64,000 bases of DNA from a virus (Duplodnaviria; Caudoviricetes): IMG/VR virus record IMGVR_UViG_3300006153_000012, positions 1 to 64,000 of that record; one strand, given 5' to 3'. A model generated the notes under the pieces. It was not told the origin of the DNA, made no database searches, and worked only from the letters and a program-made list of their open reading frames with translations. The position numbers and the translations under genes were made by a program. Shown here in pieces: positions 18,758 through 35,040 of the stretch (position 1 is its first letter; each line of letters starts with the position of its first letter).

Positions 18758-18999
18758 CAAATCTGTTACTTTCACCATGACTGGCTACTGACTATGTGCA
18801 TACATAGCGGATAGTCATTTCTGGCTATCTTTCACATTTCATTTATTTGGGATTATTGTGTGAGTTCGGACTGGATCTTCACCCTCCCTGATAGGGTAGG
18901 GGAGTAACGGAACCTTATATGCTTTGTATCACAATATAAGGTATTACAGTCTCTACGGATTCTGGTTTTAGATAATACTAATTTAAAAATAAATATACC

Positions 19000-19161
19000 C
19001 AAAAAACACCTACCGAAGTAGATGTTTTTGGAACCATAACCTTGTTATGGTTTTCTACATTTGATTTGCCATTAATCTATGCCTCGCATAGACATGCTTT
19101 TGGTAAACTCTTTCGTTCACCTTAGTAATATTATACTACTACATCTCTGATAATATGTCAA
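19000..19161 (-). ncRNA. Putative small RNA downstream of the PemK-like gene
   Basis: TTGACA-N17-TAGTAT promoter, two hairpins, then a UUCG-loop hairpin with U-run. Confidence 0.45.
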
Positions 19162-19162
19162 T

Positions 19163-19903
19163 TCAAAATTTAAAACTCAGATTTTTATTTATAGCCTTTA
19201 TTATGTTATCAAAACATTTATCAGTAGCAATGCCCAAACATTTGCTGTCGATTCGCTTCCTGTCTATCGCCCGTATATGCATTACATTTACGAATCCATA
19301 TATCCCGTTGCTGTTTCCCTCTAACCTTAAAGGAATTTCATAAAAATCTAAATATTTATTCTTTATCGCGCCATCTTTTACTATCTCAATATAGTATTTT
19401 CGTTTTACATCATCCCATTTGACTTTTTTTTGGTGTGTTGTCACTGGGGCAATAATTGTGATATTGCCTTTAATGTTCCCTGTATTGTTTTGTAATATGA
19501 TTACTGGCCTACGTCCATTTTGCTCACTGCCAATATTGTCTCCTAAATGGGCATAAAAAATTTCTTTTTGAGCGACCGTATATTTTCTTGTGCTTAAGTT
19601 TATATTTCTTGTTCTATTTACCCAAGCCAAATAATCTATATTCTTCTGCATTTTTTCTAAATAGATTGCCTTATTAGTTGTTTTTACAAACATTTCTCTT
19701 GATAATTTTCTGAATTCCTTTATTAATCTATTCTCAAGATTTTTACACTCCCGGTCATCTTTCATAATAAAAAGAATTCTATTTATTATGTCTGATAATG
19801 TTGACTCGACCATTTCCTTTTCAGCAGAATTGTTCCTGTCAATAGAATTTGTAAATTTACGTAATATGCGGATTAAATCATCATATAATTTTTCAATATC
19901 CAT
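19163..19903 (-). CDS. PemK/MazF-family toxin with N-terminal helical extension
   Basis: IFYAHLGDNIGSEQNGRRPVIILQN...IAPVT; likely start MDIEK. Confidence 0.85.
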   Translation of the reverse strand: MDIEKLYDDLIRILRKFTNSIDRNNSAEKEMVESTLSDIINRILFIMKDDRECKNLENRLIKEFRKLSREMFVKTTNKAIYLEKMQKNIDYLAWVNRTRNINLSTRKYTVAQKEIFYAHLGDNIGSEQNGRRPVIILQNNTGNIKGNITIIAPVTTHQKKVKWDDVKRKYYIEIVKDGAIKNKYLDFYEIPLRLEGNSNGIYGFVNVMHIRAIDRKRIDSKCLGIATDKCFDNIIKAINKNLSFKF

Positions 19904-20108
19904 TAGTATTCCCCAATCATCAGCATTATAATATCCCATTATATACCAATAATTGACATAATACTACAAGAACATACATTCTAAAACCTTTATTATTATT
20001 ATTATATCTAAAACCAGTCTTTCCTCGGTCTTAACGTTCCCATACGCCTTTAACCGATATAGTTACTTTTCATTATGCTGCATTACTGCAGCAGATGGCA
20101 TGTAATCC

Positions 20109-23084
20109 ACCATCAAGGTACTGATGCTCATACTTCTCATATTCCTTCAGGTATTTCTCTTTGTCGCGGAAATACTTGAGATAGAGCCTGCGGAGTGCAT
20201 CCAGATATTGTTTTTCCGTGATTTTCCCACGGTCTTTCAGATCATCAAGGTCTTTTAGTTCCTTCTCGAATGACTCTAAATATGCATCTGCTGCTTCCTT
20301 GCCGGCTTTCCCTGCTGACTTTTTACCACCTCCGGCATTGGAGAAATCAACTTTAGGCTCATAATTGATCTTGCCTGCTGATTCTTTGATAAGCGCCTGT
20401 AACATTGCCGCCCGTGCAATCTTGAATCCTATGTCCAAAGGATCAATTGTGCCGCTTGCGACCTCCTGATAAATCTGCTCCAATTCAGTCAGATATTTAA
20501 TCACTTCACCCGTATAACCTGCATTCTCCGCAAGGGTTCTCAGGTTCGCAACCTCGCCATCTGTGTTCATAATCTGCATGTTGTACAGTTCCTTCTGGAA
20601 CGTGAGCATCGCAATCGCCTGTGACGCATTTTCAGTAGACACCATCTCATTTGCAAATGCGGCAATCTGTTCTTCTGTGGCTCTTGCAAGGTCAATCCCG
20701 GCTTCCTTCAATGCTTCCTTCAATGCCTCCGTGTTGCTTATCAAGGCTTCAAACGCCACCAATTCCTCATTGACAACACCCAAGTCTTCCAGTGCGGCTT
20801 TCAGTGTTTCAAAGTCCTCCGCGCCTGATAACGCCGCCTGTGTGATGGAAGCAGCAAGGGAGTCAAATGCAGTCTCTACATCCTGCTCCGTTGACTCAGA
20901 ATTGCGCAATACCCTGACAAAATCCTCATAGGAAGAGTAGTCTACATCAAGATTTAATCCTTCTGGGTCAGACATCTCGTCTAGTTTAGACTTAATTGCG
21001 TCACATGTTGATAGGATGTCTATGCTGTTTAGTGCGAACTCATCATCCGTGAAGATGGACTGGTATGCGGATTTCAGGGAATCGAATGCGGGTTTCAGCT
21101 GGGTGTTTAGCTGATCGATGGTGGAAGAGATGGATGAAATGGGGTTTTCAATGTTCGATGTTGAATCTTGAACTTCTTTAATCTTAGCAACAAGTTCATC
21201 CCAAGATAGAAGAGTACCCTCTGGAACTTCTACCTGTTCTGCCGCAATGTGCAGTTCTTCAAGTGTTAATTCTCCAACTTTGTCATCAAAATCATCTTGG
21301 AGTTTTTCTTTTACGTTGTTGATTAGTGGTTGGGTATCGTCTACTTTTGCTTGTAAATTAACAGAAATTGGGTGTTCTGAACCAAAATACTCTTGAACTT
21401 TAGCAATAGCTTCTAATAATTCACCAGAATTTAAACTCCCAGAATATATATTAGCTAAAGCTTCTGATACTTCTGAATCATTAATATTATTGATTGAGAA
21501 TAAGATATTACGTCTTAAATATTCACTAACAGCTTCCCAATCATTTTTATCAATGCCTTCTGGTAAACTTGACCAATCAAAATTGAAAAGTGTGTCTTGT
21601 ATTGCTTTTTGTAATCCACTATCTTCAATCTGATTGTAAGTAAACTCAGTCTGTAACCATGTATTTAAATATTGATTAATAGACGATGTTTCAGCTTCAA
21701 ACTGTTGCTCTGCATATTTTACATCGTCAGATGCCTTGTTAAATGCAGATACATAAGCATCTTTTATACCAGAAAGATTTGGTATATCACCACCATCTTC
21801 TAATTCCAGTTTATAACCAATGATTTGACCCATGCCATCTTTTAAATTTACTTGTTTTGCTGTTATACCTAATTTTTCAAGTAACTCTATATATTGACCA
21901 AGTTTTAATGCAACTGGATCTCCATTTGCATCTTTAGCATTTCCATTAATATCAAAAGCAGTATAAATCCCATATTTATTTATTTCTTCATATGCTCTTT
22001 GGATTTCATCTCTTGTCTTTTTAGCATCTTCTTTTTGTTTCTCTAAATCAGAAACATTATTAGAATAACCAGCAAATAAGTCTGGCATCTGTTTCATGAT
22101 TTCTTGATTTGCCAATACACGTTGTCTTTCAATTAAATCATCTAATGAACCAACGATAGTATCTACATCACCAGATAGATCAAGTATAGCAACACCATTT
22201 TCATCAAAATTCTTTGTTAATGAAGGATAAAGTGTTGATAACTGATTGCTTAACTCTAAAAATCTCTCATATTTTTCAGTAGAAAGATTTTTATTTTCAT
22301 TAGTTAGTAAATTAACTCCTTGGGCAAGTTCAGCATATTCTTTGGCAATTTCTTTAGTTTTTGATGAATTTTCACTAAATGTATAGTTTATTTCATCAAT
22401 TGCATTTTTGGCTTCTTCATAAGCTTCTTTTATTGCCTTAGCCGCTTTTTCTTGTTTAACCTTGTTTACTAACGCCGCACCACCACATAATGTTAATGCT
22501 GCTGTAATACTAGCAATAACAGGATGAGCCTGTGCAATAGTTAAAATACCAGTACCCAGTCCTTTTAGTGCAGTACCAGCACCTTTAATTTTAGCACCTA
22601 TACCTGCAAGTAAAGAAGCAGACTCTTTTTGGTTTGCTAGAGTAACACCAGCTTTTGCAGCAATTAAATTAGCTTCTGCCTGTGTTAATTTACCAGTAGC
22701 AACAAGTTCCTTTAATTTTGCGGCTGTCACAACATTGGTAGCCGTAGCCTCTGCCGTTTCAGAAGTGATAAGTCCAGTATTAATCAACAACGCTTCTGAT
22801 TGATCTTTATTTCTCTTTTTTGTTACGAGTATAGCATTAAGTTCAGCAGTAGTTAATTTGCCAGTAGAACCTAATAATTCTGCCTGTGATAAAATTGCCT
22901 GTTTCTGTGCAAGATTAAGTCCTTGTGTTGATAATACCAATTCTGCTTGCTTTGCGTTTAATCCTTTTAAAGCTGTTGCATATGCAGTTATATTTGTAGC
23001 ATTTAATTTCAAATTGCTGAGTTCGTTTATTTTTCTTCCAGCAATATAAACATCTTCCAAACTTTGTCTAATTGTTTTGAATAT
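20109..23084 (-). CDS. Tape measure protein, exon 2 (992 aa)
   Basis: Long helical Ala/Leu-rich ORF; no SD before its ATG at 23087; joins both neighbours in frame. Confidence 0.85.
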
Positions 23085-23165
23085 CATACTAATATATGTT
23101 ATACTTGTGGAGAGTATAACGTCCTCTTGTGGAGAGAGGATATTGATTCCCTTGTGGAGAGGGAA
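23071..23165 (-). repeat. 3' splice-site module copy 1 (restores TMP frame) with three CUCCACA-loop hairpins
   Basis: AGTATG|ATATTCAAAACAAT; loops at 23106, 23128 and 23153. Confidence 0.85.
23077..23105 (+). promoter_or_regulatory. Sigma-A-type promoter overlapping the splice-site module
   Basis: TTGAAT-N17-TATACT with extended TG. Confidence 0.65.
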
Positions 23166-23189
23166 ATTTATAATAGGAGATGTTTATTT

Positions 23190-23861
23190 ATGAAAAGAAA
23201 AATAATAAAAGTAACAATTTTGATTTTAATGTCTATTTCTATAACTGGATGCTCCAAGGCTAATTATCAAAAGGATGAATCATATGAAACAGATATTATT
23301 GGAACATATGAAATAAATGCCGAAGCTGATTCTGATAATAAAACTACTTATTACAAACAATATGTGTTAAATGACGATAATACATATAATTATGAAAGCA
23401 ATGTATTTGGCACAGATTCAAAGTCAAGCGGTAATTACACTATAAATAATGAAACAGAAAATATTCTCATAATTGATTTTGATATTATAAATAGTACATC
23501 TACCGATGAAGAATCAGTAAATATTAATTCTGCTAAACAATACAAAAAGGTTTATAAATATAAAAATATGCTTGGTGATATAATAGAAACGAAAGAGTTG
23601 CCAACATCCGAAATGTTTAATTACATAATACCGAATAAAACAGGAGGTGGCATGATATTTACTAAGGATGGTTATTATCATGCGTGTATTGATATTGATA
23701 ATTGCCAATGTGACTATGCAAAGGACACAAAATATATAAGAAAAGATAATATTATATATTTCAATATTAAAGGTTCTGGTACTGATAACTATTGGCAAAT
23801 TGCAGATTATGTAATCGATGATTATTTATTTACTCCAGAACTATATAAAGTGGAAGAGTAG
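23190..23861 (+). CDS. Lipoprotein (intron cargo)
   Basis: MKRKIIKVTILILMSISITGC signal peptide and lipobox; SD AGGAG. Confidence 0.8.
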   Translation: MKRKIIKVTILILMSISITGCSKANYQKDESYETDIIGTYEINAEADSDNKTTYYKQYVLNDDNTYNYESNVFGTDSKSSGNYTINNETENILIIDFDIINSTSTDEESVNINSAKQYKKVYKYKNMLGDIIETKELPTSEMFNYIIPNKTGGGMIFTKDGYYHACIDIDNCQCDYAKDTKYIRKDNIIYFNIKGSGTDNYWQIADYVIDDYLFTPELYKVEE

Positions 23862-24057
23862 TAGTATCATTTCATTCAATCATATAAATCACGTCCTTTC
23901 TAAATATTTTTATGAGTAAGATTACTCAATAGATATCACAATATCAATTATAATATCTATTCAATGATCTTGGCTTTGATGAAAATATGTTCTGGGTATC
24001 AAAAATATATAACTAATGATACAATAAATGTATCAATGTTTAGGAGGATATCATGCT

Positions 24058-25506
24058 ATGGCACGAAAGAAGAAAATTCTTAGTCCTACATATACAGAGT
24101 TAATTGTACCAACATATGATGCATTAAAGCAATTAGGAAATTCAGCTACTAATGAAGAGATTTATAATAAAATTATTGAAAATTTAAATTTGCCAGATGA
24201 TGTAATTCACGAACCGCATGGGAAAAATTTAGGCAGAGGTGAATTAGAATATCAACTTGCATGGGCAAGAACTTATTTAAAAAATTATGGTGTTATAAAA
24301 AGTATTAAAAGAGGTACATGGGAGATAGAACCATCTTTTATTGGAAATGTCCAATTAAATTATAGAGAAGTGATTGACTATACAGCGAATAAAAAGCAAC
24401 AATTAGATAATAATGTAGAAAATAATAGTGAAAATTTTCAAAATGAGGACGTTGATGATCTAACAGAGGATAACAAATATATTTCTGATGTTGAACAACC
24501 CGAAAATGCAAATTTATATATAAAAAGCCTGATTGACTCGTGGGAAACTAAAGATTTAAAAATACCTTTCTTTCAAAGAAAGTTTGTTTGGACTTTACGT
24601 CAAGCAAGTTTGTTTATTGAATCATTATTGTCTAATTTACCAATTCCAGCCCTTATGTTTTATAAAGATGCTGATGACTTTCAATATATAATAGATGGAC
24701 AACAACGAACAAAAAGTATTCTTTATTTTACAGGTGCAATAAAACTAGATGAAGTTGATGATGATAATAAAAAGTTTCTAAATTTTAGATTAATCGGATT
24801 ATCAGATGATAGTCCATATAAAAATAAAACATTTGCTGGACTTGATCCTTCTATAAGAAGAAAATTATTAAACCGCACATTGCCAATAACAACAGTCAAG
24901 GTAAATGATGATAGTGATTTGCCTAAAATCTTTGAAATTTTTCGTAGACTTAATACAGGAGGTACTCCTTTAACTAAGCAAGAAATACGAAATTGTATTT
25001 GTGCAGGTAATTTTAATGAATTTCTTATTGATTTAAATAAAAACAAAGAATGGCAATCATTTATTACCAGCGAGAACGATAGAAAAAGACAACGTGATGT
25101 TGAACTAATATTACGATTCTTTGCTTTATATGAAACATACAAACAATATAAAAGACCAATGGATGAATTTTTAACTTTGTATTTTGATGCACACAGAGAG
25201 ATTGGTGATATTGAAAAAGAAGAAAAGACTGCTCTTTTTAATGCTGTTGTTTCAGCTATATACAATAATTTAGGGAGAAGGCCCTTTCATATAAAAAATG
25301 GTTTAAATTCTGGTGTATGCGATTCTGTCATGGTTGCTTTTGCAAATAATATAAATAATATTCCGCTGGATATAAAAGATCGATTCTTTGCATTGACACA
25401 TAACGATGAATTTTATAAATATTGTGGCAAAAATATTAACGACAATGAATCTGTACAATGTAGGATACAAATTGCAACAGATTATCTTTTTGGTGATTCA
25501 GAATAA
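24058..25506 (+). CDS. Mrr N-terminal wHTH fused to DUF262 (GmrS/ParB-like) domain
   Basis: PTYTELIVP...LEYQLAWARTYLK...RGTWEI; IPFFQRKFVW, IIDGQQR, IFRRLNTGGTPL. Confidence 0.8.
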   Translation: MARKKKILSPTYTELIVPTYDALKQLGNSATNEEIYNKIIENLNLPDDVIHEPHGKNLGRGELEYQLAWARTYLKNYGVIKSIKRGTWEIEPSFIGNVQLNYREVIDYTANKKQQLDNNVENNSENFQNEDVDDLTEDNKYISDVEQPENANLYIKSLIDSWETKDLKIPFFQRKFVWTLRQASLFIESLLSNLPIPALMFYKDADDFQYIIDGQQRTKSILYFTGAIKLDEVDDDNKKFLNFRLIGLSDDSPYKNKTFAGLDPSIRRKLLNRTLPITTVKVNDDSDLPKIFEIFRRLNTGGTPLTKQEIRNCICAGNFNEFLIDLNKNKEWQSFITSENDRKRQRDVELILRFFALYETYKQYKRPMDEFLTLYFDAHREIGDIEKEEKTALFNAVVSAIYNNLGRRPFHIKNGLNSGVCDSVMVAFANNINNIPLDIKDRFFALTHNDEFYKYCGKNINDNESVQCRIQIATDYLFGDSE

Positions 25507-25576
25507 ATTATTAAAGGCTCATCTATTCAGATGGGTCTTTTTTTAATACTCAAAACATTTAGTTAAATCATTTGTT

Positions 25577-25693
25577 ATTGTTTTGAATATCATACTAATT
25601 TGTGCTATACTTGTGGAGAGCATAACGTCCTCTTGTGGAGAGTAGTGTTTTGCGTCATGTGGAGTGACGCTGTATCTAATTGTGGAGATTAGA
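25577..25693 (-). repeat. 3' splice-site module copy 2 with four CUCCACA-loop hairpins
   Basis: AGTATG|ATATTCAAAACAAT at 25591/25590; loops at 25612, 25634, 25658 and 25681. Confidence 0.85.
25583..25611 (+). promoter_or_regulatory. Sigma-A-type promoter overlapping module copy 2
   Basis: TTGAAT-N17-TATACT. Confidence 0.6.
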
Positions 25694-25756
25694 CATTGTG
25701 TTTTGTGGATATATTTGGTATAATTTTACTAAAAATATATAATCAAGGGGATACAT

Positions 25757-26419
25757 ATGATTTTCAAAAAGACATTACAAATTGTTTTGGTGTTCTTATT
25801 AAGTATATTATTATGCTCATGTTCTTCTAATAATAATTTAAATGATGATTTTATCAGTTTTCATGAACAACAATTAGACCAAAAAGTTTATAAAACATCT
25901 CAGGATCAAAATTTTGTAATTAGCAATTTAGACAAGGAAAAAGTTCCTGAACATTCAAAAGTTGTTTTAATGGTATTTCTTGGGAATGAAACCAAATACC
26001 AGGACGAAGTATATAAATGGTTACAATTATCAATAGATGAAAGAAAAGCTGATTTAAGGGAATGTGCAGAGTTAGTGATTAAATATGCTCAAGATAATAA
26101 CTGGAAAAATGATTATTATCTTTATGTCAATTTGACAGATATTTATGGTGTTTGTAGTATAATATATGATTATGAAAAAGATGAAATTTGGATACCAAAT
26201 TGCGAAAATACTTTTATTGAAATGTATGAAAAATTTAATACATTCTACGAAAAAGATTTAGAAGAAACACAAGATGGAATTGATTTTCTTGTAGATAATA
26301 ATTTAGCATACATCAAACATAATCAAGTGGAATATAGAAATATTTTTAGCTATACAGTATATATAGATAACGAAGGAAATTTTAAAAGTTATGGCGAAGA
26401 TAATTCAATAAAATATTAA
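25757..26419 (+). CDS. Lipoprotein (intron cargo)
   Basis: Signal peptide ending LLCSC; SD AGGGG. Confidence 0.8.
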   Translation: MIFKKTLQIVLVFLLSILLCSCSSNNNLNDDFISFHEQQLDQKVYKTSQDQNFVISNLDKEKVPEHSKVVLMVFLGNETKYQDEVYKWLQLSIDERKADLRECAELVIKYAQDNNWKNDYYLYVNLTDIYGVCSIIYDYEKDEIWIPNCENTFIEMYEKFNTFYEKDLEETQDGIDFLVDNNLAYIKHNQVEYRNIFSYTVYIDNEGNFKSYGEDNSIKY

Positions 26420-26752
26420 ACAATCATAAAAATCACATCCTTTCAATTTTTTAGAGCGATAAGACTACTCTATGAATTGCACTAGAGATTAATTCAGTTT
26501 ATACGGTAGTCTTATTTGGTTATTAAATTGACTAAGTGGTAAGATGTTATATATTGCTTTATAATATATGGTAGAAAATAGAATGAATCAAAACTTGATT
26601 GAATATTTATTGATTATTAAGGAGTGGCATTGTAATAAGTGCAGTTCGGATTTTTAGGTAATTAATATTACATCCTTTCTATGAATAGAAGGGTAGAGAA
26701 TATGAAAAACAGGATACTTGATACAATATCCTGTTTAATAGAAGTTATTTAA

Positions 26753-27394
26753 TTAATTATTTTTACTATTTAAAGAATTTATAATCTGTTTCATCATTAA
26801 ATATTGCTTATTTTTTTCACATAAATTCCAAATGAATTGATATTTTTCTCTGCCAAATTGAAATCTTAGATCCAAGTCATATATAGCTGTATCTAAATCA
26901 TTAAAATCAATTATCATACATTGTAAAAATGTATTTATTGTTTTTTCTACGATTTTAATTTTTTCTCTATCCCATTCCTTATATTCTTTAATAATATTAT
27001 TATACAATATATGACGATTAAACGTATATTCTATTAAGTCATAAAATTTATCAATATTCATTTCTCGTAAAAAAACAGTTTGCACTTCAATAATTTTTAT
27101 ATTATTAAAACTTTTTAATATATTTTTCCAAAAAGTGATTTCGTTATCAGAAGTTATTTCATCTAATTCATCAATAAAATTTTCTAAATTTACTGATGTA
27201 TATATTTTTTTAAATGCGTATAAAAAATCATAAAATAAATCTAATGTTTTATAATCTAACATAATTTTCTCATTCTCAATTATATCATTGAAATTGTGAG
27301 ACACATTCTTTAAGAGAAATAACTTATCAATAACATCGTCAACTTTATCCTTTTGGGCATCTGATGTTATATATTTTAATAATTTGTTTTCCAT
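26753..27394 (-). CDS. Hypothetical helical protein (gene 3 of nitrilase operon)
   Basis: 213 aa, overlaps the upstream gene, very AT-rich. Confidence 0.7.
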   Translation of the reverse strand: MENKLLKYITSDAQKDKVDDVIDKLFLLKNVSHNFNDIIENEKIMLDYKTLDLFYDFLYAFKKIYTSVNLENFIDELDEITSDNEITFWKNILKSFNNIKIIEVQTVFLREMNIDKFYDLIEYTFNRHILYNNIIKEYKEWDREKIKIVEKTINTFLQCMIIDFNDLDTAIYDLDLRFQFGREKYQFIWNLCEKNKQYLMMKQIINSLNSKNN

Positions 27395-28230
27395 GGTTTA
27401 CCTCCAATCCAATTACTGTCATCTGAGAAATGTGCAATATTTTGATAGTAACTTTTTTCTTTATCTAGCAAATATGTCAATTTATTCAAATTATAATTTG
27501 CACTCGCAGAATTTAAATGAGGCTTTTTAAGTTTATGATTATCTTGATTGGATTTACTTAATATATATTCAATTAAATATTCTAAAACTTCATTTACTTT
27601 TCCTTCATTGTAATTTAAAGTCAGGTCATCAAAGTCAATATTCTTAATCATGAAAAATGCATAAAGGTTTTTACCTTTAGGAGATAAAGAATATAATACA
27701 GTGTCATTTACTTGACGTGTCATAACTAAATCATAAATATGTGACGATGGAGCAAAGAAATCTACATTAGAATCAAAAAGTTCCTTTAATTCTGAATTTG
27801 AAGCTTCAGTATGGTCATAAAGGTATTTATAAAAATTTAGTTTAGACGGATTGCTAAAGTATTTTTTACATTCATTTACTTTGATAATATAATTTTCATT
27901 AATATCCAATACTCTAATAACTAATTTAAAAAAGTGTAATATATTGTATTGCTTTAATGCAGACATCAAATTTGGTATTTCTGATTCTCTACAAAAGGAT
28001 ATAATTATGTTATATTGTCTTCTGGATTCATTTGAAATATCCTTTTTTAATTGTTTAATTTTCTCAAGTTCTTCATAATTTCCAGCATCATTCTTTATGT
28101 TATTTATAAGAGAAGATAAAATATTTTCATAAGTAGATTCTATATGCATATCGAAATTAGAATCATTAAAATTAGAAATATTATTCTCACTGTTTTTTAT
28201 ATAGCCTAATAATTCATCAATTTGATTCAT
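27376..28230 (-). CDS. Hypothetical protein with possible winged-helix (gene 2 of nitrilase operon)
   Basis: LYDHTEASNSELKELF...VLYSLSPKGKNLY resembles a wHTH. Confidence 0.65.
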   Translation of the reverse strand: MNQIDELLGYIKNSENNISNFNDSNFDMHIESTYENILSSLINNIKNDAGNYEELEKIKQLKKDISNESRRQYNIIISFCRESEIPNLMSALKQYNILHFFKLVIRVLDINENYIIKVNECKKYFSNPSKLNFYKYLYDHTEASNSELKELFDSNVDFFAPSSHIYDLVMTRQVNDTVLYSLSPKGKNLYAFFMIKNIDFDDLTLNYNEGKVNEVLEYLIEYILSKSNQDNHKLKKPHLNSASANYNLNKLTYLLDKEKSYYQNIAHFSDDSNWIGGKPWKTNY

Positions 28231-28231
28231 A

Positions 28232-29779
28232 TCAACACCTCTTCATTTCATAAACATTTAAACTAACAATATTATTTTCAAAAAACAATTCTTCTAAATC
28301 AATATTAAAAATTCTGCCATTGCAAAAAGAATCACAATTTCTACATTCTTCATTAAATGTATAAAAAATTTTCCTATGGGAACGAGTTGTATTATCTTTT
28401 GAGGGTGTAATAATAAAACCAATTTTATTTTTATTTTCTATCTTTTCATTTAATGAATCTATATTTTCTTCTAAATGTTTTAAAGAAGAACATGTATTGC
28501 ACATAATAGTAGTGCAATGATATCGTTCTGAAAGGGTAGCAGCATTATTAGTAAGATCGTTTGAAGGGTTACATGCTGGCAATATTATAAAGTCACCTTG
28601 TAATATTCTTGTAAGATTCATATAGCAATCATCATCAATATCTTTGCATATATAAGTTAATATTCTTCCAAAATTATTAATATCTATTACATGTATATTG
28701 CAATCATGAATTAAGTGTTCACTAAAAATTATTTTTTCCTTAAAATCATGCGAAAAAAGAAAACTATCTAGCAAACATTTCTGTTCGACATTTGAACAGT
28801 TTTTTATAATTGTTTTAAAGTCATCTTCGGAATATTTTAAATCAAAAGGTATTTTCTTATAATATTGAAAAATTTCCATGCTTTCATAAAATACATGGCA
28901 TATATTATTTCTATTCTCCCAAACACTTCCACAAAAAACAAATTTAATGTCTTGTTCATGTAATTTAGAAATAATCGAATTAATTATCTTTTCTGTCATA
29001 AGCATTTCTGGAAATATAAGGAAGTCTATATTATCCGATAAATTTTCAATAAACTGATTACATCTTTCAATAATTTTCCCTTCAATATTATCTTTCATAT
29101 TGTTTATATTAAATTTCATATTTTCAGTATATGTAATGTTAAAAATGTCATGCAAATTAGTATTCAAAATCGGGCATATAGCAATTCTTAGTTCTTTCTT
29201 ATTGTAAATGCGATTTATAAAATCTTCATATTCAATTAACTCATGAATTGTTATATTATAATCATCATCAAAAATTATATAACTTTTCAATTTACTATTA
29301 ACCGATAAACTATCATATTTTTTTCTTTCTCTTAAATAATTATTTTTATATTCTTCTTTATATATACTGTTGAAATCTTCTCGATAATTAGATAATAAAA
29401 CGGGATAAATTTTTATCTTTTTATTATATATTTCGTTAAGGCTTTTATATGTTTTAAATTGATCATCTAAATAAGTTGAATTTCTATAATTATAAATTTC
29501 ACATGAATCAATTGATATCAATAAACAATAATATTCTGTAGTGGATAAAGGTTTATAATTTAATGATATTAATATTGCCTGTTTTAAATATTTAAACGCA
29601 TAACAAGGACTGAATTGTTTATCTTCTAAATATTTATTTAAAATTTTATTGAAAATGTCCATGGTAGATTTGTCGTATACATTATTTATATCAAAATTTT
29701 TATCCTCAATTATATGTGCATAGCATATTGCCATGATATCATATATGTTTCTTGCAGACTCAAGTTCTTTGGTAAACAT
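28232..29779 (-). CDS. Protein with C-terminal carbon-nitrogen hydrolase (nitrilase) domain
   Basis: FLIFPEML (E), YYKKIP (K), TYICKD (C) triad; likely start MFTKE after GGGGG. Confidence 0.7.
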   Translation of the reverse strand: MFTKELESARNIYDIMAICYAHIIEDKNFDINNVYDKSTMDIFNKILNKYLEDKQFSPCYAFKYLKQAILISLNYKPLSTTEYYCLLISIDSCEIYNYRNSTYLDDQFKTYKSLNEIYNKKIKIYPVLLSNYREDFNSIYKEEYKNNYLRERKKYDSLSVNSKLKSYIIFDDDYNITIHELIEYEDFINRIYNKKELRIAICPILNTNLHDIFNITYTENMKFNINNMKDNIEGKIIERCNQFIENLSDNIDFLIFPEMLMTEKIINSIISKLHEQDIKFVFCGSVWENRNNICHVFYESMEIFQYYKKIPFDLKYSEDDFKTIIKNCSNVEQKCLLDSFLFSHDFKEKIIFSEHLIHDCNIHVIDINNFGRILTYICKDIDDDCYMNLTRILQGDFIILPACNPSNDLTNNAATLSERYHCTTIMCNTCSSLKHLEENIDSLNEKIENKNKIGFIITPSKDNTTRSHRKIFYTFNEECRNCDSFCNGRIFNIDLEELFFENNIVSLNVYEMKRC

Positions 29780-29903
29780 AATATCCCCCTTCATTCTATA
29801 TTTATCTATTAAAATTATAATATACAAATTCAATTATTGGAAGAAACATATGTTTGAATATGGTAAAATTTGGAATTTAATTGCAACTATGCACACTTTG
29901 ATA

Positions 29904-29915
29904 GAACTTATGTTC
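29904..29915. promoter_or_regulatory. LexA (SOS) box
   Basis: Perfect GAAC-TTAT-GTTC between divergent genes; second variant AAACATATGTTT at 29844. Confidence 0.65.
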
Positions 29916-30000
29916 TGCTTTGAGATATAGTTTATATCAATAATTGAGATATGTCAATACTGTATAGGCAGTATTGTAACAATAAGGGCGGTATTTAAAC

Positions 30001-30294
30001 ATGATTGATTGGAGTAACTTTGAAAATAAATTACAGGAACGTGGCAGGAGAGCAGAACTATCACGTCAAACAGGCATATCTACCGGCAACATACGAGACT
30101 GGTTCAATCCTGATAAACCAGCACAGCCAAGTGCGGATGCTCTTGTTAAGATATCAAAAGCCCTTGATTGCTCCGTAGACTACCTGCTTGGGCTTACTGA
30201 TGTTGAAAAGAGAGCAACAAATAAATCAAACATCATCCCAATTCCAATAGTGAAGCAAAAGGCTGCCGCTGGACTTGGGATACAAACCAACTGA
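30001..30294 (+). CDS. XRE/CI-type HTH repressor, truncated before the S24 peptidase domain
   Basis: HTH (ELSRQTGISTGNIRDW...SVDYLLG) followed by IPIV..KAAAG then stop. Confidence 0.7.
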   Translation: MIDWSNFENKLQERGRRAELSRQTGISTGNIRDWFNPDKPAQPSADALVKISKALDCSVDYLLGLTDVEKRATNKSNIIPIPIVKQKAAAGLGIQTN

Positions 30295-30300
30295 ACTGTT

Positions 30301-30349
30301 AATTGTTTTGAATATCATACTTATAAATTTTGCAACTTGTGGAGAATTG
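30301..30349 (-). repeat. 3' splice-site module copy 3 with one CUCCACA hairpin
   Basis: AGTATG|ATATTCAAAACAAT at 30316/30315; loop at 30338. Confidence 0.8.
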
Positions 30350-30549
30350 AATGTAGATTTTTATTTGAATCAGTAAATATTATTAACTCACTTATCAACC
30401 TTACAAAAACAATATTATTTTCGATGGATTTTCCCGTAGAAATATGGTATACTAATTCTTGCATATTGTTGGAGTGTACCGCACTTCATTATAACCACTC
30501 ATTACTCACCAAAGTTTGGGTGGTTATTTTAAAAGAAGGGAACAGTGCT

Positions 30550-30759
30550 ATGGATAGCAAAATGATTGTTGACTCAATAAATATTTTGTGTAAAATAAAT
30601 AATATTTCAATATCTCAATTAGAAAAAGATTTAAACTTTAAGCCGTCATTAATTGACAGTTGGAACAATTCATTACCTACTCTTGATGAAATTGTGGATA
30701 TAGCTAATTATTTTGAAGTATCATTGGATGATTTAATAAAAAATAAAATTAAAAAATGA
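30550..30759 (+). CDS. Small XRE-family HTH protein
   Basis: ISISQLEKDLNF...IVDIANYFEVSLDDL; SD AAGGG. Confidence 0.75.
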   Translation: MDSKMIVDSINILCKINNISISQLEKDLNFKPSLIDSWNNSLPTLDEIVDIANYFEVSLDDLIKNKIKK

Positions 30760-30810
30760 AAGAGAGGGTTGCCCCTCTCTGTTCTATCCATATTTGCATT
30801 ATGAAATTAT

Positions 30811-31803
30811 TTATGCTGTCCTAATCATATTTCTCCAGTAATCAAGCCTACCGCGCACATTCTCAGGACTGCTTGTTCCTGACTGTACATATTGCTTATA
30901 ATCGTTATTTGTTTCGTATTCATTAAGAAACTTATTGACCAATTCAACCAACTTTGAGAATGATTTCTTGTCCTTAATAATCCGGTATCCGCTATATAAT
31001 ACCATTGGAATTGATGTGACAGGTATTTTAATCTCATCAAATGCTTCGTCAAATTTATCCATTGATTCTTTTAACACGTCAACTTTTGATAGACTTTCAT
31101 CAGCGTAATCTTGCACGAAAACATCAATGTCTTTTGCTCTGAATGATGTAAAATCTCTCTCCTGATTGCTGCAAATAAGCATTAATGTTTGAATTATTAG
31201 ATCTCTATCTGTACCGTTTTTCCTTTGTGTAGGTGTAACTAACTTATCCATAAAGGGATGGTTTGCCAAAGAATATACAGCATCGCTGAATGCATCGGAC
31301 TCATGTACAATACGAAGCAATTTCCCGTTGAGGGGCTTGGAAGTGTTCTGCCGCCTGAACATTTCCTTTACCTCATTATCGGTATAATCAGACAATGTAC
31401 AGAACTCTAAGCTGCAGGCAAGGAGGGTTGATTGCACTTCTTCATCAAGTTTTTTGAATTTTTTGCCTGCTAATTCATATTTGTTTTCTACAATCTCACC
31501 TTCTTCTTTGCTCCGGATGATAATATTGGGCGTGTCCTTGCTAAGGGCAAACTCATTATTTATATAACTGATACATGTTGAAGTCCTTTGGGAACCATCA
31601 AGTGTGTATGAAGTGCCATCTTCATCAACAACATAAATAGGATTCACAGGAAAGCCTGAAAGCAGACTGTGTATCAGCAAAGACTTCATTTTGGGACTCC
31701 ATTGTCCAATAGGACGCTGAAGTTTATGTGAAAAAGAAATATTCCCCTTTTTGTGTTGATTGGTAATCCACTGTAAAGTACGTTCTTTACTGGATGTCTT
31801 CAT
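30811..31803 (-). CDS. DUF262 (ParB/Srx-like) domain protein
   Basis: LQRPIGQW, SLL.GFP, LDGSQR, MFRRQN. Confidence 0.75.
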   Translation of the reverse strand: MKTSSKERTLQWITNQHKKGNISFSHKLQRPIGQWSPKMKSLLIHSLLSGFPVNPIYVVDEDGTSYTLDGSQRTSTCISYINNEFALSKDTPNIIIRSKEEGEIVENKYELAGKKFKKLDEEVQSTLLACSLEFCTLSDYTDNEVKEMFRRQNTSKPLNGKLLRIVHESDAFSDAVYSLANHPFMDKLVTPTQRKNGTDRDLIIQTLMLICSNQERDFTSFRAKDIDVFVQDYADESLSKVDVLKESMDKFDEAFDEIKIPVTSIPMVLYSGYRIIKDKKSFSKLVELVNKFLNEYETNNDYKQYVQSGTSSPENVRGRLDYWRNMIRTA

Positions 31804-32006
31804 TCTGCTACCTCCGAAAATATTTTGAATTTTGATATTTTCAGAGTAGCACATTTATAAATTATTGTAAATAATTTTTTGTGAAAAATTGTGTGAAATA
31901 AGATTATTTTAATTAATATATCTTTATATTTGACAATATATGTCAGTATGTTACAATATCAATTACAGCACTCAGACTTGATTCTGTAACCACCTCCAAA
32001 AAATAA

Positions 32007-32071
32007 CTCGCCTCCACGCGAGATAGGCTTGCTCCACACAAGCCACCGACATAGTATGATGTTCAAAACAA
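32007..32071 (+). repeat. Inverted copy of the 3' splice-site module with two CUCCAC(A) hairpins
   Basis: AGTATG|ATGTTCAAAACAA at 32058/32059; loops at 32012 and 32032; promoter-like TTGACA...TACAAT at 31930-31957. Confidence 0.75.
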
Positions 32072-32093
32072 CAATGATTATCGGAGGTGGCTC

Positions 32094-32312
32094 ATGGGAA
32101 ATATAATTAAAAGTGCTGTTGAGTGTGAATTTGCGTATGGGATGGTATGCGTATTAGCCAGTTTTATATTCTTTTACGCCGCCATTCGATTTGTAGTACC
32201 TTACATATATAAGATTGTATGTAAATTATGCAATACATTGGTGAAGTACAAAGATATTCACACAAAAGCCAATGTTAAGGATGTCTCGTTTGAGACAGAA
32301 TTACATCGGTAA
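32094..32312 (+). CDS. Small membrane protein
   Basis: SD GGAGGTGG, one hydrophobic helix. Confidence 0.6.
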   Translation: MGNIIKSAVECEFAYGMVCVLASFIFFYAAIRFVVPYIYKIVCKLCNTLVKYKDIHTKANVKDVSFETELHR

Positions 32313-33043
32313 TTTTGGACTACTGGATTCCACTCTGGTAGTCCTTTGGCTTGTCTTGTTTATATGATTCTCCGTTTCTTCCCTACGGCTAGGAGAAATC
32401 CTTACATTATTCTATTCCTTCTATAATAAGTATAGTTGCTATTAAGAAATAGAAGAGTAGCATCACTCTTTTGGTTCATGCTTATATTATTAGGCTCCAC
32501 CCTAATAATATACAATCTATTTCGGTTCTATCTTCTTATCAACTCCGATAGTGAGAGTTCCAACAAATGTGTAAGACGTAGGAGATAAGATTCCTAACAG
32601 CAATTACTAACCGCTACACTCGGCAAAGTCTGGATCACTCCTTGCAGCATTAGGAATTTCACCTAATGCCACCTGCCCTGATGCTCTCTGAGATTAGCAC
32701 TCATCTAGTGAGATTTCCATCCTTAAAAGGATTTCTGTACATTCTGTACGCTGTCATCTGCTCGTTATTGTCAAATATCACATTGTAACTATAGCCGTTT
32801 GTGTTGCCACTTAGGAGAGTAGTGATATTTGTATACCAACTTTCAAGACCATTAATTGCTAAATGGTGTATCCATAATGCAGAGGGATACCATATCTGCT
32901 ATACTTATAAAAAGTATACGGTGGTTAATTCCACACGAGATTCAATTGTGTATTTCACAAAGGATAATATTTAAAACTTATTCTTTGAATAAGAACCAAT
33001 ATTACAACAGGCATATTCGATATGAGGGATTACGTTTTACCCT
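32310..33043 (-). ncRNA. Large structured RNA, putative ribozyme core of the giant intron
   Basis: ~730 nt with no credible ORF and many stems (e.g. GCAUUAGG/CCUAAUGC, 12-bp stem with GUGGAG loop), starting at the 5' splice site. Confidence 0.7.
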
Positions 33044-34978
33044 ACCTGTGTTTTTAAACCCAGCAAATAATCCTGCTCCGAGTCCGATAGATCCAAACAA
33101 CCCAAGTTTGGAGGTTAGTGTGTCGATGATGTTCATAACTGATGTTAATCCGTCAACGACTGTTTTCATGTCACTTCTTTTAAAGAGGTTTTGGGCTACT
33201 GATGTGGATGTTTCGGATAGGCGGTTGAGTTTGAAATCGAGACTATCCATAATTACTGACATTTCTCTATCTGCTGATCCAGCACTATTTTCCATCACTT
33301 CAATAGCAGAGCGGATTTGATCAAAATTTTTGATCATTGCCGCGCCTACTTGAGCACGATTTTTCCCAAATAATTTGTTAAGTAATTCATTTTGTGACTT
33401 TGCATCAATTTCGTCCCAAATGTCAGAAATATCACCAAGGTAATCAACTAAATCTCTGTATTCTGTTTGGGAAGAATCAGTAAATAAAGAAATTCCTTGA
33501 CCATTATTACTTGCAACTTTTGTCAAATCAATGACCTCGCCCTTAATATTAGCAAGATCTTCACTAAATTCTTCAGTTTCCTCGTCATAAGACCTAACAC
33601 GCAAAGCGATTGAACGGATAGCATTACCTACCTGTGATGCATCTTGAACAATTTCTTGTGCTCCAGTAAAAAGTGCAATATTCGACTCGATTGTTCCTCC
33701 AACGGCGGCCATTGCAGCAGAAGATTTTCTTAAACCTTCGGCTATTTCTGCGTTAGAAGTTCCAAATTTGTTACCTACGTCATTGATTTTACTAAGTATT
33801 CCATCTAATACATCATCAACTTCTACATCATAAGCACGCATCATAGATACTAAAGAAGTAGTGGCTTCGTCAACATCCATGCCTGGTGAGATGCTTGCAA
33901 ATTGGGAACTGAATTTTGCCATTTTTGTAGCTGCCTCACCGCTAGAAAATCCGAGCCTTGACCAGGCGGAACTTTGATTAATTATCTCCTCAGTAGTAAC
34001 CCCCATCTGTTTTGCTACTTTATTAGAAGAATAATAAAAATCTTCCAGCTCACTATTTGTCATAGTAGTAGTCTTTTTCAGATCCACCAAAGCAGTATCC
34101 AGTGCCTTAACAGTTCCTAATCCACCCTTAACAGACTGGATCGCTTTCATTACCAAGAAAGTTGAACTCGTCCAATAGCTAAATGAACTCATTCCTTCTC
34201 TCAAAGTCTGAAAGAATGTTTTTCCTAGTTTTCCAGCATTACGGGCTTGTACAACTGCATTATTAAACTCCTGATTTAACTTTGCAATTTCTTCTCTTGT
34301 AAGCTTTGCACCTTGTGTAGTTTCATTAAATATTCTCATAAATTCTCCGGAATATTTAACAGCTTTGCCATTTTTACTCATAAAATCATTAACTTGATTG
34401 TGTAAAGAAGAAATAGCAGAGTCCTTAGCCATTTCAGCATTCATTTTACGAACATCATTAGTAATTTTCTGATATTCAGTATCAAGCTTTTTGCTGGACT
34501 CGATTAATCTTTTTTGTGTTGCTTCTGACTTGTTATTTGCATAAGCTTCTGATGCTTGTGTTAATTTTGTCAATGCATCACTCAATGCAGCGGTGTTAAT
34601 CCTTGCCTGACCTTCACTGTCAGTCCATTGTCTCGTCCTTGCAATCAGAGTTTCAACTTTGGATTCATATCCGCCTGTCTCCATTGAAAGTTGAATTTTA
34701 TCGGCTCTTGATGTTGCGTTATTTACATCTCTGATCACTTGGTTTATCGAAGATAAAATCTTGCTTGTATCAATATTTAATTTTCCTGAGCTTGCTTGAT
34801 TTAAAGCAGTTTGTATCTGTTTGGCAAAATTTTGTAATTCCTGCTTACTTGCTGATGTGTCTAATACAGTTTTTAGATTTATATTTTTACTTTCAAGCTG
34901 TCCTTTTAGCTTATTTAGATCTGTTATTGCATTTGATGTATCTAATCGTGTAATTAATTGGACAATAAATTCATCCAT
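33044..34978 (-). CDS. Tape measure protein, exon 1 (645 aa)
   Basis: TP901-type TMP domain (LDTALVDLKKTT...WSRLG...AKFSS); SD AAAGGAG; ends KNTG. Confidence 0.9.
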
Positions 34979-35040
34979 ATATTTCAGGACTCCTTTCAAA
35001 TAAAAAACTCCCATGCTCTATCATGAGAGTTTATGATTCT

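Follow-up and report, generated by a model that had tools for sequence, protein, structure and literature searches.

Hairpins sharing one loop as a putative 3'-terminal docking domain of a cargo-laden, group I-type intron in a phage tape-measure gene

How might a ribozyme find a 3' splice site that lies some 10 kb away from it, beyond a series of foreign genes? The question is raised by the tape-measure gene in a 64-kb stretch of phage DNA (hereafter the window), taken from a record described as a 48%-complete linear fragment. On the minus strand, exon 1 (33044..35014; Pfam PhageMin_Tail) comprises 657 codons, ends with ..FAGFKNTG and has its final base, a T, at 33044, while exon 2 (20073..23084; 1003 codons, beginning IFKTIRQSLED...) is colinear with P0085, P0025 and P0073. 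An element of 9,959 nt (23085..33043, minus strand) intervenes; its 5' part resembles a group I intron, and cargo genes and a putative 3' docking module follow. Uninterrupted, colinear homologues of the gene (P0085, P0025, P0101) run on as ..FKNIG|IFKT.., and in 73 of 120 long homologues the alignment ends exactly at the last residue of exon 1; most of these 73 ORFs stop 2-32 residues past it. Judged from these alignments, the gene is split at a precise in-frame point (..KNTG|IFKT..). Homologous elements of 1.0-23.5 kb were found at the same codon, and 38 distinct introns assembled there (1.0 to 23.5 kb) served as our comparison set.

The intervening DNA has a group I layout, with a guide complementary to both exon ends and a terminal G. 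[quoted passage not shown] The P1 wobble at the cleavage site of group I introns is U.G, rarely C.A. In relatives, the P1 guide covaries with the exon ends (GUCGGU with GCCGAC), and GGC| is also found with ACCGAC, a swap from a U.G to a C.A wobble at the cleavage site; P10 retains five to six pairs in relatives whose guide reads GAAUGU or GAACGU. The terminal G is present in all 38 distinct introns, which end in ..UAUG or ..UACG.

A core structure proposed from 19 related cores is 87.6% paired, as compared with 37-46% when the partners are slid against each other, and 53 of its 81 pairs change on both sides. Within it, the P7 candidate of the relatives is 100% paired with two covarying pairs, all seven P8 pairs covary, and a long-range, P3-like helix covaries as well (permutation p about 0.001). 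The 3' peripheral (P9-extension) domain contains a conserved hairpin, Px (32578..32598, minus strand; GUUAGGA AUCUUAUC UCCUAC), which is 100% paired in relatives with four of five pairs covarying (alignment A3); its loop CUUAUC forms a pseudoknot with GAUAAG at 32535-32540, which is 94.7% paired. P3 and P7 could not be placed in the window's own, partly chimeric core, and searches of the window and six related cores with Rfam models (RF00028 and relatives) gave no group I or group II match at E-values up to 10. A first-pass annotation had proposed that a GGAGUG motif may form a long-range, P7-like helix, a suggestion that we could not confirm. On the strength of these structural comparisons, we regard the element as a candidate IA2-like, IStron-like group I-type intron.

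The chimeric core, with its missing P3 and P7 assignments, raises the alternative that the element no longer splices, that the prophage is defective and that any matching loops are relics. The incompleteness of the record fits this explanation, as does the fact that the 33044->23084 exon joint was absent from four runs labelled or guessed to be RNA, two of which are probably DNA and all of which were available as Logan contigs. However, guide, terminal G, the conserved box at the 3' splice site and the hairpins next to it (both described below) are all intact in the window, the exon frames are open over 657 + 1003 codons, and the architecture persists with compensatory changes across dozens of diverged phages. 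We therefore consider decay of the element improbable.

Ten ORFs were scanned with Pfam; for the cargo, the families found were GmrSD_N (twice), Mrr_N and HTH alone, and three ORFs fell into no family. Across the elements, the cargo amounts to 0.5-23 kb and is made up of accessory or defence-type genes that have promoters of their own and mostly run antisense. In relatives, it is directly preceded by a GAACAA-type motif (GGAACAAAAC, GAUAAGAUGGAACAAAAC or GGAACGAAAC), which reads GAACCG in the window. IStrons (CdISt1, BcISt1 and relatives) combine an IA2 group I ribozyme with IS200/IS605 or IS607 cargo (PMC4227781). They resemble the phage element in starting, at the 5' end, with a ribozyme of group I type, and in having a 3' splice site past the cargo, cargo downstream of the last P9 sub-domain (P9.2) after a GAACAA/GAACGA-type motif, complementary sequences flanking the cargo, and an occurrence in Clostridia and their phages (PMC4227781). 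In contrast to IStrons, the phage element carries accessory and defence genes instead of a transposase or TnpB pair (no TnpA- or TnpB-type IS200/IS605 or IS607 cargo was seen, and a transposase was absent by Pfam), all its copies sit at one fixed gene site and not at many transposon targets, and its cargo would be bridged by short loop-receptor pairing on one to four hairpins rather than by an AU-rich stem.

What, then, marks the remote 3' splice site? The first-pass annotation had listed ten hairpins that present the same loop on different stems, and a heptamer search of the window recovered all of them, the one at 25634 with a weak stem. Exact TGTGGAG occurs on the plus strand at 23106, 23128, 23153, 25612, 25634, 25658, 25681 and 30338 and on the minus strand at 32032, with a CGTGGAG variant at 32012; exact TGTGGAG/CTCCACA heptamers are confined to four clusters in the 64-kb window. 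The hexamer is not enriched by itself (15 observed versus 11.8 expected in the window); what stands out is that the copies cluster, that they sit in hairpins and that they go together with a 19-nt box, TTGTTTTGAATATCATACT. This box holds the 3' splice site and is present at 23072, 25578 and 30303 (plus strand) and at 32053 (minus strand), four copies where 0.11 are expected, a number reached in none of 100 shuffles. Every hairpin cluster adjoins one box copy, in agreement with the earlier proposal that the hairpins neighbour copies of the splice site; they belong to the 3' end of the intron-like element.

At the working splice site, the box (23072..23090, minus strand) comprises the last six intron bases AGUAUG, with the terminal G at 23085, and the 13 bases with which exon 2 begins, AUAUUCAAAACAA. 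It is joined by the putative working docking module (23098..23165, minus strand), three hairpins at 23098-23120, 23122-23140 and 23147-23165, each with the loop CUCCACA. The minus-strand RNA 23180->23078 is predicted to fold into these three hairpins with 7-nt loops at -21.9 kcal/mol (z = -4.7), and none of 200 shuffles folds as well.

Gene-bearing DNA on the other strand suggests a different use, namely in promoters or 5' leaders of the adjacent antisense accessory genes. Read in the GUGGAG sense, every module has a gene behind it: those at 23192 and 25757 encode lipoproteins, a small HTH ORF lies past 30349, and the fourth is the GmrSD gene 31854->30811. Box and first stem together give TTGAAT-17-TATACT twice in the window and TTGAAT-17-TATAAT in the Lachnospiraceae prophage A4, and in most relatives an antisense Shine-Dalgarno (SD) sequence with a start codon lies at a distance of 40-110 nt from the 3' splice site. 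Against this stand the stems 25604-25626 and 30333-30349, whose G.U pairs exist on the minus strand alone and are A/C mismatches on the plus strand; the earlier view that function resides on the minus, gene-sense strand is thus borne out. Moreover, the -10-like hexamer is missing in G004 and G005, the antisense loops share no Shine-Dalgarno-like or other motif across loop classes, and the loop/receptor covariation described below is left unaccounted for. An exclusively antisense role is consequently unlikely, whereas a dual use, antisense and docking, is possible and compatible with docking.

Seven of the ten hairpins lie away from the working splice site, in two internal acceptor copies and in an opposite-strand leader. 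Copy 2 (25578..25695, minus strand) consists of the box and four CUCCACA hairpins (loops at 25612, 25634, 25658 and 25681), and the reading frame past it stops after 15 codons. Copy 3 (30303..30349, minus strand) consists of the box and one CUCCACA hairpin (30333-30349), precedes 28 nt of exon-2-like sequence of foreign origin and adjoins a truncated CI-type repressor gene (30001-30294, plus strand). The five gene-sense hairpins at 25604-25695 and 30333-30349 are part of what remains of the 3' ends of foreign introns that arrived with cargo blocks, and they may still be able to act as competing acceptors.

Such an arrangement, in which modules bound cassette arrays, is also what would be seen if box and hairpins were DNA recombination sites (attC- or transposon-end-like) serving cassette gain and loss, with the loop and its complement in the core as terminal inverted repeats. 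In metagenome contigs of relatives, joints fall at the edges of boxes (25597->25677, 25602->30282, 30321->25677), and inverted repeats bracket IStron cargo (PMC4227781). Yet neither a recombinase nor a transposase was found in the ten ORFs scanned, three of which lack a family, and the cassette joints lie at variable positions, 15-72 codons into foreign exon-2 remnants, with no fixed site. The combination of variable stems with fixed loops also disagrees with this reading, and the strand-specific G.U pairs point to RNA; we hold it to be very improbable. An integron-like attC array was considered separately and rejected, there being no recombinase family among the ORFs scanned and no fixed crossover point.

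Under the docking idea, the loops would pair with a partner in the ribozyme. The first-pass annotation had pointed to three candidate loops. The first, a perfect 12-bp hairpin at 32483..32512 (minus strand) with the loop GUGGAG, the exact complement of CUCCAC, is present in both the minimum-energy and the centroid folds; it is the likely docking partner in the window, perhaps assisted by two GUGGAG loops on the inverted module. The second, a GUGGAA loop (32328-32333), exists but finds no support as a partner: it lies on a terminator-like hairpin (32318..32345, following a 72-aa ORF, with GUGGAA in the minus-strand loop) and is not conserved (GUAGAA in A4). The third, GGAGUU (32541-32546), likewise exists but is not complementary in the window; its hairpin is the conserved UAUC..GAUA, whose loop reads GUGGAU in A4 and G006. 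GUGGAG-type loops sit on different stems in the same part of the core in A4, G006, G005 and G004.

The site homologous to the receptor of relatives (X; 32557..32567, minus strand) reads UUUGUUGGAAC, is class-3-like and matches the window's CUCCACA loops poorly; the GUGGAG hairpin lies about 60 nt beyond it. On the plus strand, the loop at 32495 reads CTCCAC, the same orientation as the hairpins at 32012 and 32032, so that orientation within the window alone leaves the kissing partner unproven, and comparative data serve instead.

To obtain 3' modules unselected for their loops, IMG/VR was searched with the box only, which yielded 39 distinct modules. Loops recur among them on entirely different stems, CTCCACA in 18 and N2-TCAAACA in about 15; the A4 prophage alone carries four such hairpins with unrelated stems. 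The 3' hairpin loops of the 38 introns fall into three classes, each with its complement in the 3' peripheral domain of the ribozyme: NUCCACA with receptor GUGGAG (class 1), NYUCAAACA with UGUUUGA (class 2) and CCCAACAA with UUGUUGG (class 3). In cores with Px, the segment directly 3' of this hairpin is GUGGAG, GUGGAU or UGUGGG when the loops are NUCCACA, and (U)GUUUGA(A) or UGUUUGG when they are NYUCAAACA; in L148 it is UUGUUGG, and the loops read (C)CCCAACAA, a 7-bp match. A second core type presents the complement in a hairpin loop, GGUGGA or AGUGGAA with UCCACA loops (G002, L178) and AGUUUGA(A) with UCAAACA loops (L043, L048). Complementarity of 5-8 bp is thereby kept through two-sided changes in three classes and two receptor contexts.

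The complement of its own loop is present in eight of nine class-1 and 23 of 24 class-2 representatives, and when the 3' modules are shuffled across cores, p is about 4e-4, a value not corrected for phylogeny; the classes follow intron lineages, so that the independent switches are few, about four. Exceptions are L074 (receptor GUUUGA but loop AUCCACA), L144 (only 5 bp), G009 (receptor site only UGGA), and L043 and L048, which also have a GUGGAG-containing loop. This covariation supports the docking idea at the level of compared sequences. The claim that loop pairing tethers a distant splice site gains from the 38 introns and loses from the window itself, where the homologous receptor site is mismatched.

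Loops can be read by proteins as well, as lambda N does on boxB and the MS2 coat protein on its operator. A protein recognizing the loop in its hairpin context, be it an RNA-binding factor of the phage or host or a maturase-like helper, would account for conserved loops on variable stems in tandem arrays of one to four, which are typical of protein-recognised hairpins. It would leave unexplained why three loop classes each have a complement at homologous ribozyme sites, and no protein gene is common to the cargo of all elements; we judge it distinctly unlikely.

Building on the observed anatomy, conservation and covariation, we think it probable that the hairpins are the 3'-terminal docking domain of an IA2-like, IStron-like group I-type intron and pair with the ribozyme to allow splicing. 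The ribozyme part would occupy the first ~700 nt past the 5' splice site; downstream of the P9-extension domain, accessory genes would have accumulated over about 9 kb, leaving the 3' splice site AGUAUG|AUAUUC 10 kb off. In the gene-sense RNA, the 7-nt CUCCACA loops of the three hairpins would pair with GUGGAG in the peripheral domain, a contact that would place the terminal G, together with the 3' exon, at the guide (P10) for exon ligation. We infer that the loops do pair in this way, that splicing takes place and that having several hairpins raises avidity. To all appearances, the internal acceptor copy at 25596 is fully competent, and transcription would reach it before the real acceptor. 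Truncated products are therefore to be expected unless something prevents them, which counts against the docking model.

Multivalent docking had been put forward as without described precedent. The design elaborates known principles (P13/P14, sunY, IStron inverted repeats); the arrays and swappable classes do set it apart. In the T4 sunY (nrdD) intron, as Michel et al. reportedly found in 1992, an ORF lies between the core and a domain at the 3' terminus that is required for activity. Both there and in the phage element, a structured 3' domain must find an upstream core across a long insert before ligation; the sunY insert measures about 1 kb compared with 6-23 kb, and sunY has neither an identical-loop array nor interchangeable classes. 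The P13/P14 kissing loops of Tetrahymena-type ribozymes, Watson-Crick pairings of 5-7 nt between peripheral domains, similarly stabilise a fold through hairpin-loop pairing (10.1101/2021.08.11.455951, PMC9477386). P13/P14 clamp a compact ribozyme, whereas the phage pairing would recruit a splice site kilobases distant and is multicopy, with at least three swappable versions. Introns of Bacillus cereus group prophages (TMP-IVS1/2, IA2; TMP-IVS3, IA1) likewise interrupt the tape-measure gene in frame, with early stops and a guide adapted to the site (PMC2504315). They are small and contain at most a homing endonuclease gene; multi-kb cargo, tandem acceptors and docking arrays are undescribed there (PMC2504315).

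Should the pairing prove real, 6-23 kb of foreign genes between core and 3' splice site would be tolerable to a group I ribozyme by means of a short, exchangeable RNA address. This would account for an essential phage gene having turned into a refuge for genes of defence and superinfection exclusion in phages of gut Lachnospiraceae. The pairing would further provide a natural modular tether in three orthogonal versions, of possible use in engineered cis- or trans-splicing ribozymes, and one system in which to test remote 3' splice-site selection and how cargo-laden introns avoid premature or wrong ligation.

A more far-reaching view, which we find doubtful, holds the loop/receptor pair to be a true addressing code by which the ribozyme chooses among several acceptors, including other RNAs. 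Candidates would be the tandem internal copies and the leader of a 72-aa membrane-type ORF (32094-32312, plus strand). Docking or trans-splicing at this leader late in infection would free the ribosome-binding site and switch the small protein on, and transcription of the 10-kb intron in one piece would be unnecessary. The opposite-strand unit (31990..32312, plus strand) comprises, in this order, an anti-SD CCACCUCC (31990-31997), two CUCCAC(A)-loop hairpins (32007-32022 and 32026-32044), the inverted box copy (32053-32071), an SD GGAGGUGG (32083-32090) and the ORF. In the predicted fold (-36.4 kcal/mol, z = -3.3), the SD is locked in an 8-bp stem with the anti-SD, with hairpins and box inside. 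The same layout recurs in A4, G006 and G009.

On its minus strand the 78-kb IMG/VR fragment from mouse gut carries the tail genes of an SPbeta-like phage, among them a tape-measure gene in three pieces: a first piece (35014->33002, minus strand) matching the Pfam family PhageMin_Tail, a 1004-codon ORF (23087->20073, minus strand) and a 799-codon ORF (18778->16379, minus strand), the latter two assigned to the same protein by long homologues. The homologous protein P0085 is colinear from residue 655 of the first piece straight into residue 2 of the second, and another homologue, P0073, runs from the end of the second piece into the third. Where uninterrupted proteins read ..FKNIG|IFKT.., the window has ..FKNTG, 9,959 nt of intervening sequence (23085..33043, minus strand) and then IFKT... 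The alignment reaches exactly this split residue in 73 of 120 homologues, and most such ORFs stop 2-32 residues later; many phages are hence interrupted at the identical codon. Elements found there range from 1,023 nt (locus L074) to 23.5 kb (locus G004); that of Lachnospiraceae bacterium A4 (GCA_000403215.2) spans L012 217-10594. Searches of the INPHARED phages by tblastn with the exon-2 N-terminus or by blastn with the L074 core gave no match.

Thirty nucleotides into the element lies GAAUAU-GCCUGU. This sequence is complementary to both exon ends (ACAGGU|AUAUUC), with U.G where exon 1 meets the intron, and so has the layout of a group I guide, P10 + P1. Relatives with the exon end GUCGGU carry the guide GCCGAC, and in one class of relatives the exon ends in C with an A opposite in the guide, a swap of the U.G for a C.A wobble. 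All 38 distinct assembled introns have a terminal G. A group II reading was rejected, since the element does not start with GUGYG and its guide is complementary to 6 nt of the 3' exon and sits at a distance of 25-50 nt from the 5' end. We scored the core structure on 19 diverse cores (alignment A3) for P2, P2.1, a GNRA hairpin, P6, a P7 candidate, P8, P9 and a conserved peripheral hairpin termed Px. The proposed structure was 87.6% paired, versus 37-46% when the partners were slid, and 53 of its 81 pairs showed changes on both sides; the P7 candidate was 100% paired (AGCG/CGCU, AAUG/CAUU or AGUG/CAUU). A helix GGUGAUA/UAUCACC seen in some cores was discarded, as it is not conserved and is absent from the Lachnospiraceae bacterium A4 prophage and from the related loci G005 and G006. 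The segment directly 3' of the 5' strand of the P7 candidate pairs with a site some 190 nt upstream, the two sides covarying among cores (UGGAA/UUCCA, GAGA/UCUC, UAGGG/UCCUA, CAGG/CCUG, AUGCUCG/UGGGCAU), and this long-range helix, together with the P7 candidate, would reproduce the P3/P7 pseudoknot topology of group I introns. Alignment gaps caused a column-exact helix search to miss P3, which was then examined sequence by sequence. On the minus strand, the Px loop CUUAUC (32584-32589) is complementary to a conserved GAUAAG (32535-32540), with CUAUC/GAUAG in G004 and G005; this pseudoknot (A3 columns 446-451 with 501-506) frames the receptor site, the core segment complementary to the 3' hairpin loops. 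That the element is dead is unlikely, given its intact reading frames and the presence of compensatory changes.

The cargo starts after GAUAAGAUGGAACAAAAC. In IStrons the transposon occupies the equivalent place, downstream of P9.2 and after the equivalent type of motif (GAACAA/GAACGA; PMC4227781). At gathering and permissive thresholds alike, Rfam returned no intron family in the window, and none in the second intervening sequence of the gene (1.35 kb), five related loci, the minimal 1-kb intron of L074 or the core of locus G002; weak matches to rsmX, SIB and snoRNAs were attributed to chance. P3 and P7 were not placed in the window's own, partly chimeric core. Because of these negative results we name the element group I-like, of an apparent IA2/IStron-like type, rather than a proven member. 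No exon 1-exon 2 joint was present in the Logan contigs of two metatranscriptomic runs (X18, X20) and two further runs guessed to be RNA but probably DNA (X11, X16), a result that is neutral with respect to splicing.

The 3' splice site is held by a 19-nt repeat, the box, present four times in the window (23072, 25578 and 30303 on the plus strand, 32053 on the minus strand) where 0.11 copies are expected; in the A4 genome a further match to the box (L013) is devoid of hairpins and was dismissed as spurious. The first-pass annotation had described hairpins with a common loop on different stems next to these copies, and they are indeed there. Exact copies of the heptamer TGTGGAG (minus-strand CUCCACA) number nine and, together with one CGTGGAG variant, fall into four clusters (23106/23128/23153, 25612/25634/25658/25681, 30338, and the inverted pair 32012/32032), with no exact copy elsewhere in the 64 kb; every copy lies in the loop of a small stem-loop, no two stems are alike, and a box adjoins each cluster. 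With 15 occurrences against 11.8 expected, the hexamer count is unremarkable, so that the signal lies in the clustering, in the hairpin context with its differing stems and in the adjoining box. As minus-strand RNA, the first cluster is predicted to fold into three hairpins with 7-nt loops (z = -4.7). The G.U pairs reported as restricted to the minus strand in two stems are present as described, as is the 12-bp hairpin (32483-32512) whose minus-strand loop reads GUGGAG. Taken together, these features confirm the hairpin observation. Read on the plus strand, the loop of the 12-bp hairpin is CTCCAC, in the same orientation as its neighbours at 32012 and 32032, and its functional strand and partner are therefore not decidable from the window alone.

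We therefore turn to comparison. A search with the box only, in which loops were not a criterion, yielded 39 distinct 3' modules. Two loops recur on unrelated stems: CTCCACA in 18 hairpins, with one to four per module, and a loop of 9 nt with UCAAACA at its end in about 15, usually one per module. Where a core has Px, the stretch from Px to GAUAAG varies with the class of the 3' loop. NUCCACA loops (class 1) go with a GUGGAG, GUGGAU or UGUGGG receptor on a small hairpin (A4, G005, G006, G004), and NYUCAAACA loops (class 2) with (U)GUUUGA(A) or UGUUUGG, a combination found in over 20 representatives that span four sub-lineages. Locus L148, with the receptor UUGUUGG at this position and two 3' loops, ACCCCAACAA and UCCCAACAA, that match it over 7 bp, constitutes a third class. 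In a second type of core a hairpin, CCGUA[..]AAGAAAC, presents the receptor as its loop, which reads GGUGGA (G002) or AGUGGAA (L178) with UCCACA loops, and AGUUUGA(A) (L043, L048) with UCAAACA loops. Overall, the matching complement is present in eight of nine class-1 and 23 of 24 class-2 representatives; when the 3' modules were shuffled among cores, p was about 4e-4, uncorrected for relatedness, and we estimate about four independent loop/receptor switches. There are exceptions: L144 offers 5 bp only, G009 only UGGA, and L043 and L048 have an additional GUGGAG-containing loop. The smallest member, L074 (2864-3886), combines the receptor UGUUUGA with AUCCACA as the loop of its sole 3' signature hairpin; it may be a recombinant, or docking may be dispensable there.

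Linkage could explain an association of loops and receptors as such; the argument for docking is that complementarity was re-established three times at homologous sites. On this comparative footing the docking reading appears well supported. Binding of the hairpins by a protein would account for conserved loops on variable stems and leaves the covarying receptors unexplained. CsrA-type GGA loops, ANTAR dual hexaloops, N4-type hairpin promoters, REP/RAYT elements and integron attC sites were dropped in view of the 7-nt loops, the gene-sense strand and the covariation with the ribozyme.

The loop-loop tether proposed for the window finds three complementary loop/receptor classes among relatives, but the homologous site of the window itself is mismatched: it reads UUUGUUGGAAC, is class-3-like, and forms only five pairs, with one internal mismatch, with CUCCACA, the loop of all three working 3' hairpins. 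Sixty nucleotides beyond it sits the 12-bp GUGGAG hairpin, and the window core looks as if it had acquired a class-1 3' module along with a matching new receptor. Of two further loops put forward as partners, GGAGUU does belong to the right hairpin (the conserved UAUC..GAUA hairpin, with GUGGAU in A4 and G006) but lacks complementarity in the window, and GUGGAA is the unconserved loop of a terminator-like hairpin of an opposite-strand ORF.

An opposite-strand role of the modules, as promoter or leader, is suggested by the gene that follows every module in the GUGGAG sense, and by the box and first stem, which make up a sigma-70-like TTGAAT-17-TATACT in the window (23078-23106 and 25584-25612, plus strand) and TTGAAT-17-TATAAT in A4 (L012, about 10560-10600, opposite strand). 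The sites in the window read into antisense signal-peptide or lipoprotein genes (23192-23861, 25757-26419), and in most relatives the last cargo gene is likewise antisense, starting 40-110 nt from the 3' splice site. Yet G004 and G005 lack the -10-like hexamer, the G.U pairs lie on the other strand, and the loop/receptor covariation is left unexplained; dual use is possible. The leader of a plus-strand 72-codon membrane-type ORF contains the inverted module, with its box and the hairpins at 32012 and 32032; a promoter-like TTGACA-n17-TACAAT lies upstream of them. In the predicted fold of this leader (31990-32105, plus strand; z = -3.3), the anti-SD sequence CCACCUCC (31990-31997) pairs with the ribosome-binding site GGAGGUGG (32083-32090), enclosing the two CUCCAC hairpins and the box. 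The layout is kept in A4, G006 and G009 with G.U-tolerant changes, and a 16-codon upstream ORF starts in the box and ends over the start codon of the 72-codon ORF. As gene-sense RNA, the same module provides a 19-nt stretch complementary to the splice-site box, along with two further GUGGAG loops; it may be used in either sense.

Several elements contain box and hairpins in two to five copies. Behind the internal copies the frame is closed within 8-72 codons, and over its first 28-45 nt the sequence is similar to the start of exon 2 in other phages (such as IFKTFNNDLDK and IFKTINSSVD); for both reasons we regard the internal arrays as leftovers of foreign intron 3' ends brought in by cargo blocks. 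Metagenome contigs of related phages are joined at box edges (25597-25677, 25602-30282, 30321-25677) and have fewer hairpins or lack whole cassettes, which shows cassette shuffling among relatives at the DNA level. A role of the modules as DNA recombination sites lacks a recombinase among the ten ORFs scanned, and a fixed joint. One cassette joint is marked by a CI-type repressor gene (30001-30294, plus strand; HTH_3/HTH_26) that stops within a few bases of the internal box at 30303 and is devoid of the peptidase half; the relative L005 has a complete HTH + Peptidase_S24 gene. A terminal G and an identical box with four hairpins are also present at the internal acceptor at 25596, which transcription would reach ahead of the real site. 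Three options present themselves: it is used and gives a truncated tape-measure product, it is blocked by folding or by antisense transcripts of the adjoining lipoprotein gene, or the intron halves meet in trans and bypass it.

The intron works as a defence-gene island. Across the family the cargo includes GmrSD-type nucleases, DUF3800 proteins, AAA_15/21 ATPases, CI-type repressors and lipoproteins. The window has two GmrSD_N (DUF262) nuclease-type genes, at 24028-25506 (plus strand) and 30811-31854 (minus strand), one of them also with Mrr_N, and DUF3800, AAA_15/AAA_21 ATPase and Bro/ANT genes occupy the equivalent place in relatives. Three consecutive gene-sense ORFs of 213, 284 and 533 codons (26753-29833, minus strand) matched no Pfam family.

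Remote 3' domains occur in T4 sunY, and peripheral kissing loops (P13/P14) are a feature of group I introns. These two traits, tape-measure group I introns and IStron cargo downstream of P9.2 are each already known separately. Group I introns in the tape-measure genes of Bacillus cereus group prophages share the host gene with the present element, but are small (PMC2504315). In the literature we found no description of a cargo-laden intron in a tape-measure gene or of this loop code, nor of 6-23 kb introns combining defence-type cargo with exchangeable loop/receptor recruitment of the 3' splice site on hairpin arrays.

The second intervening sequence of the window's tape-measure gene (18779-20072, minus strand), about 1.3 kb long, separates the second from the third piece, is spanned colinearly by P0073 and carries a 258-codon ORF (19163-19939). 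In related tape-measure genes, different intervening sequences sit at other points close by (..IKSIA|, ..IKNFD|, ..GKGKST|); the loci concerned are L107, L120, L127, L141, L145-L147, L150, L156, L166-L168 and L173-L174. The tape-measure gene appears to be a general insertion hotspot.
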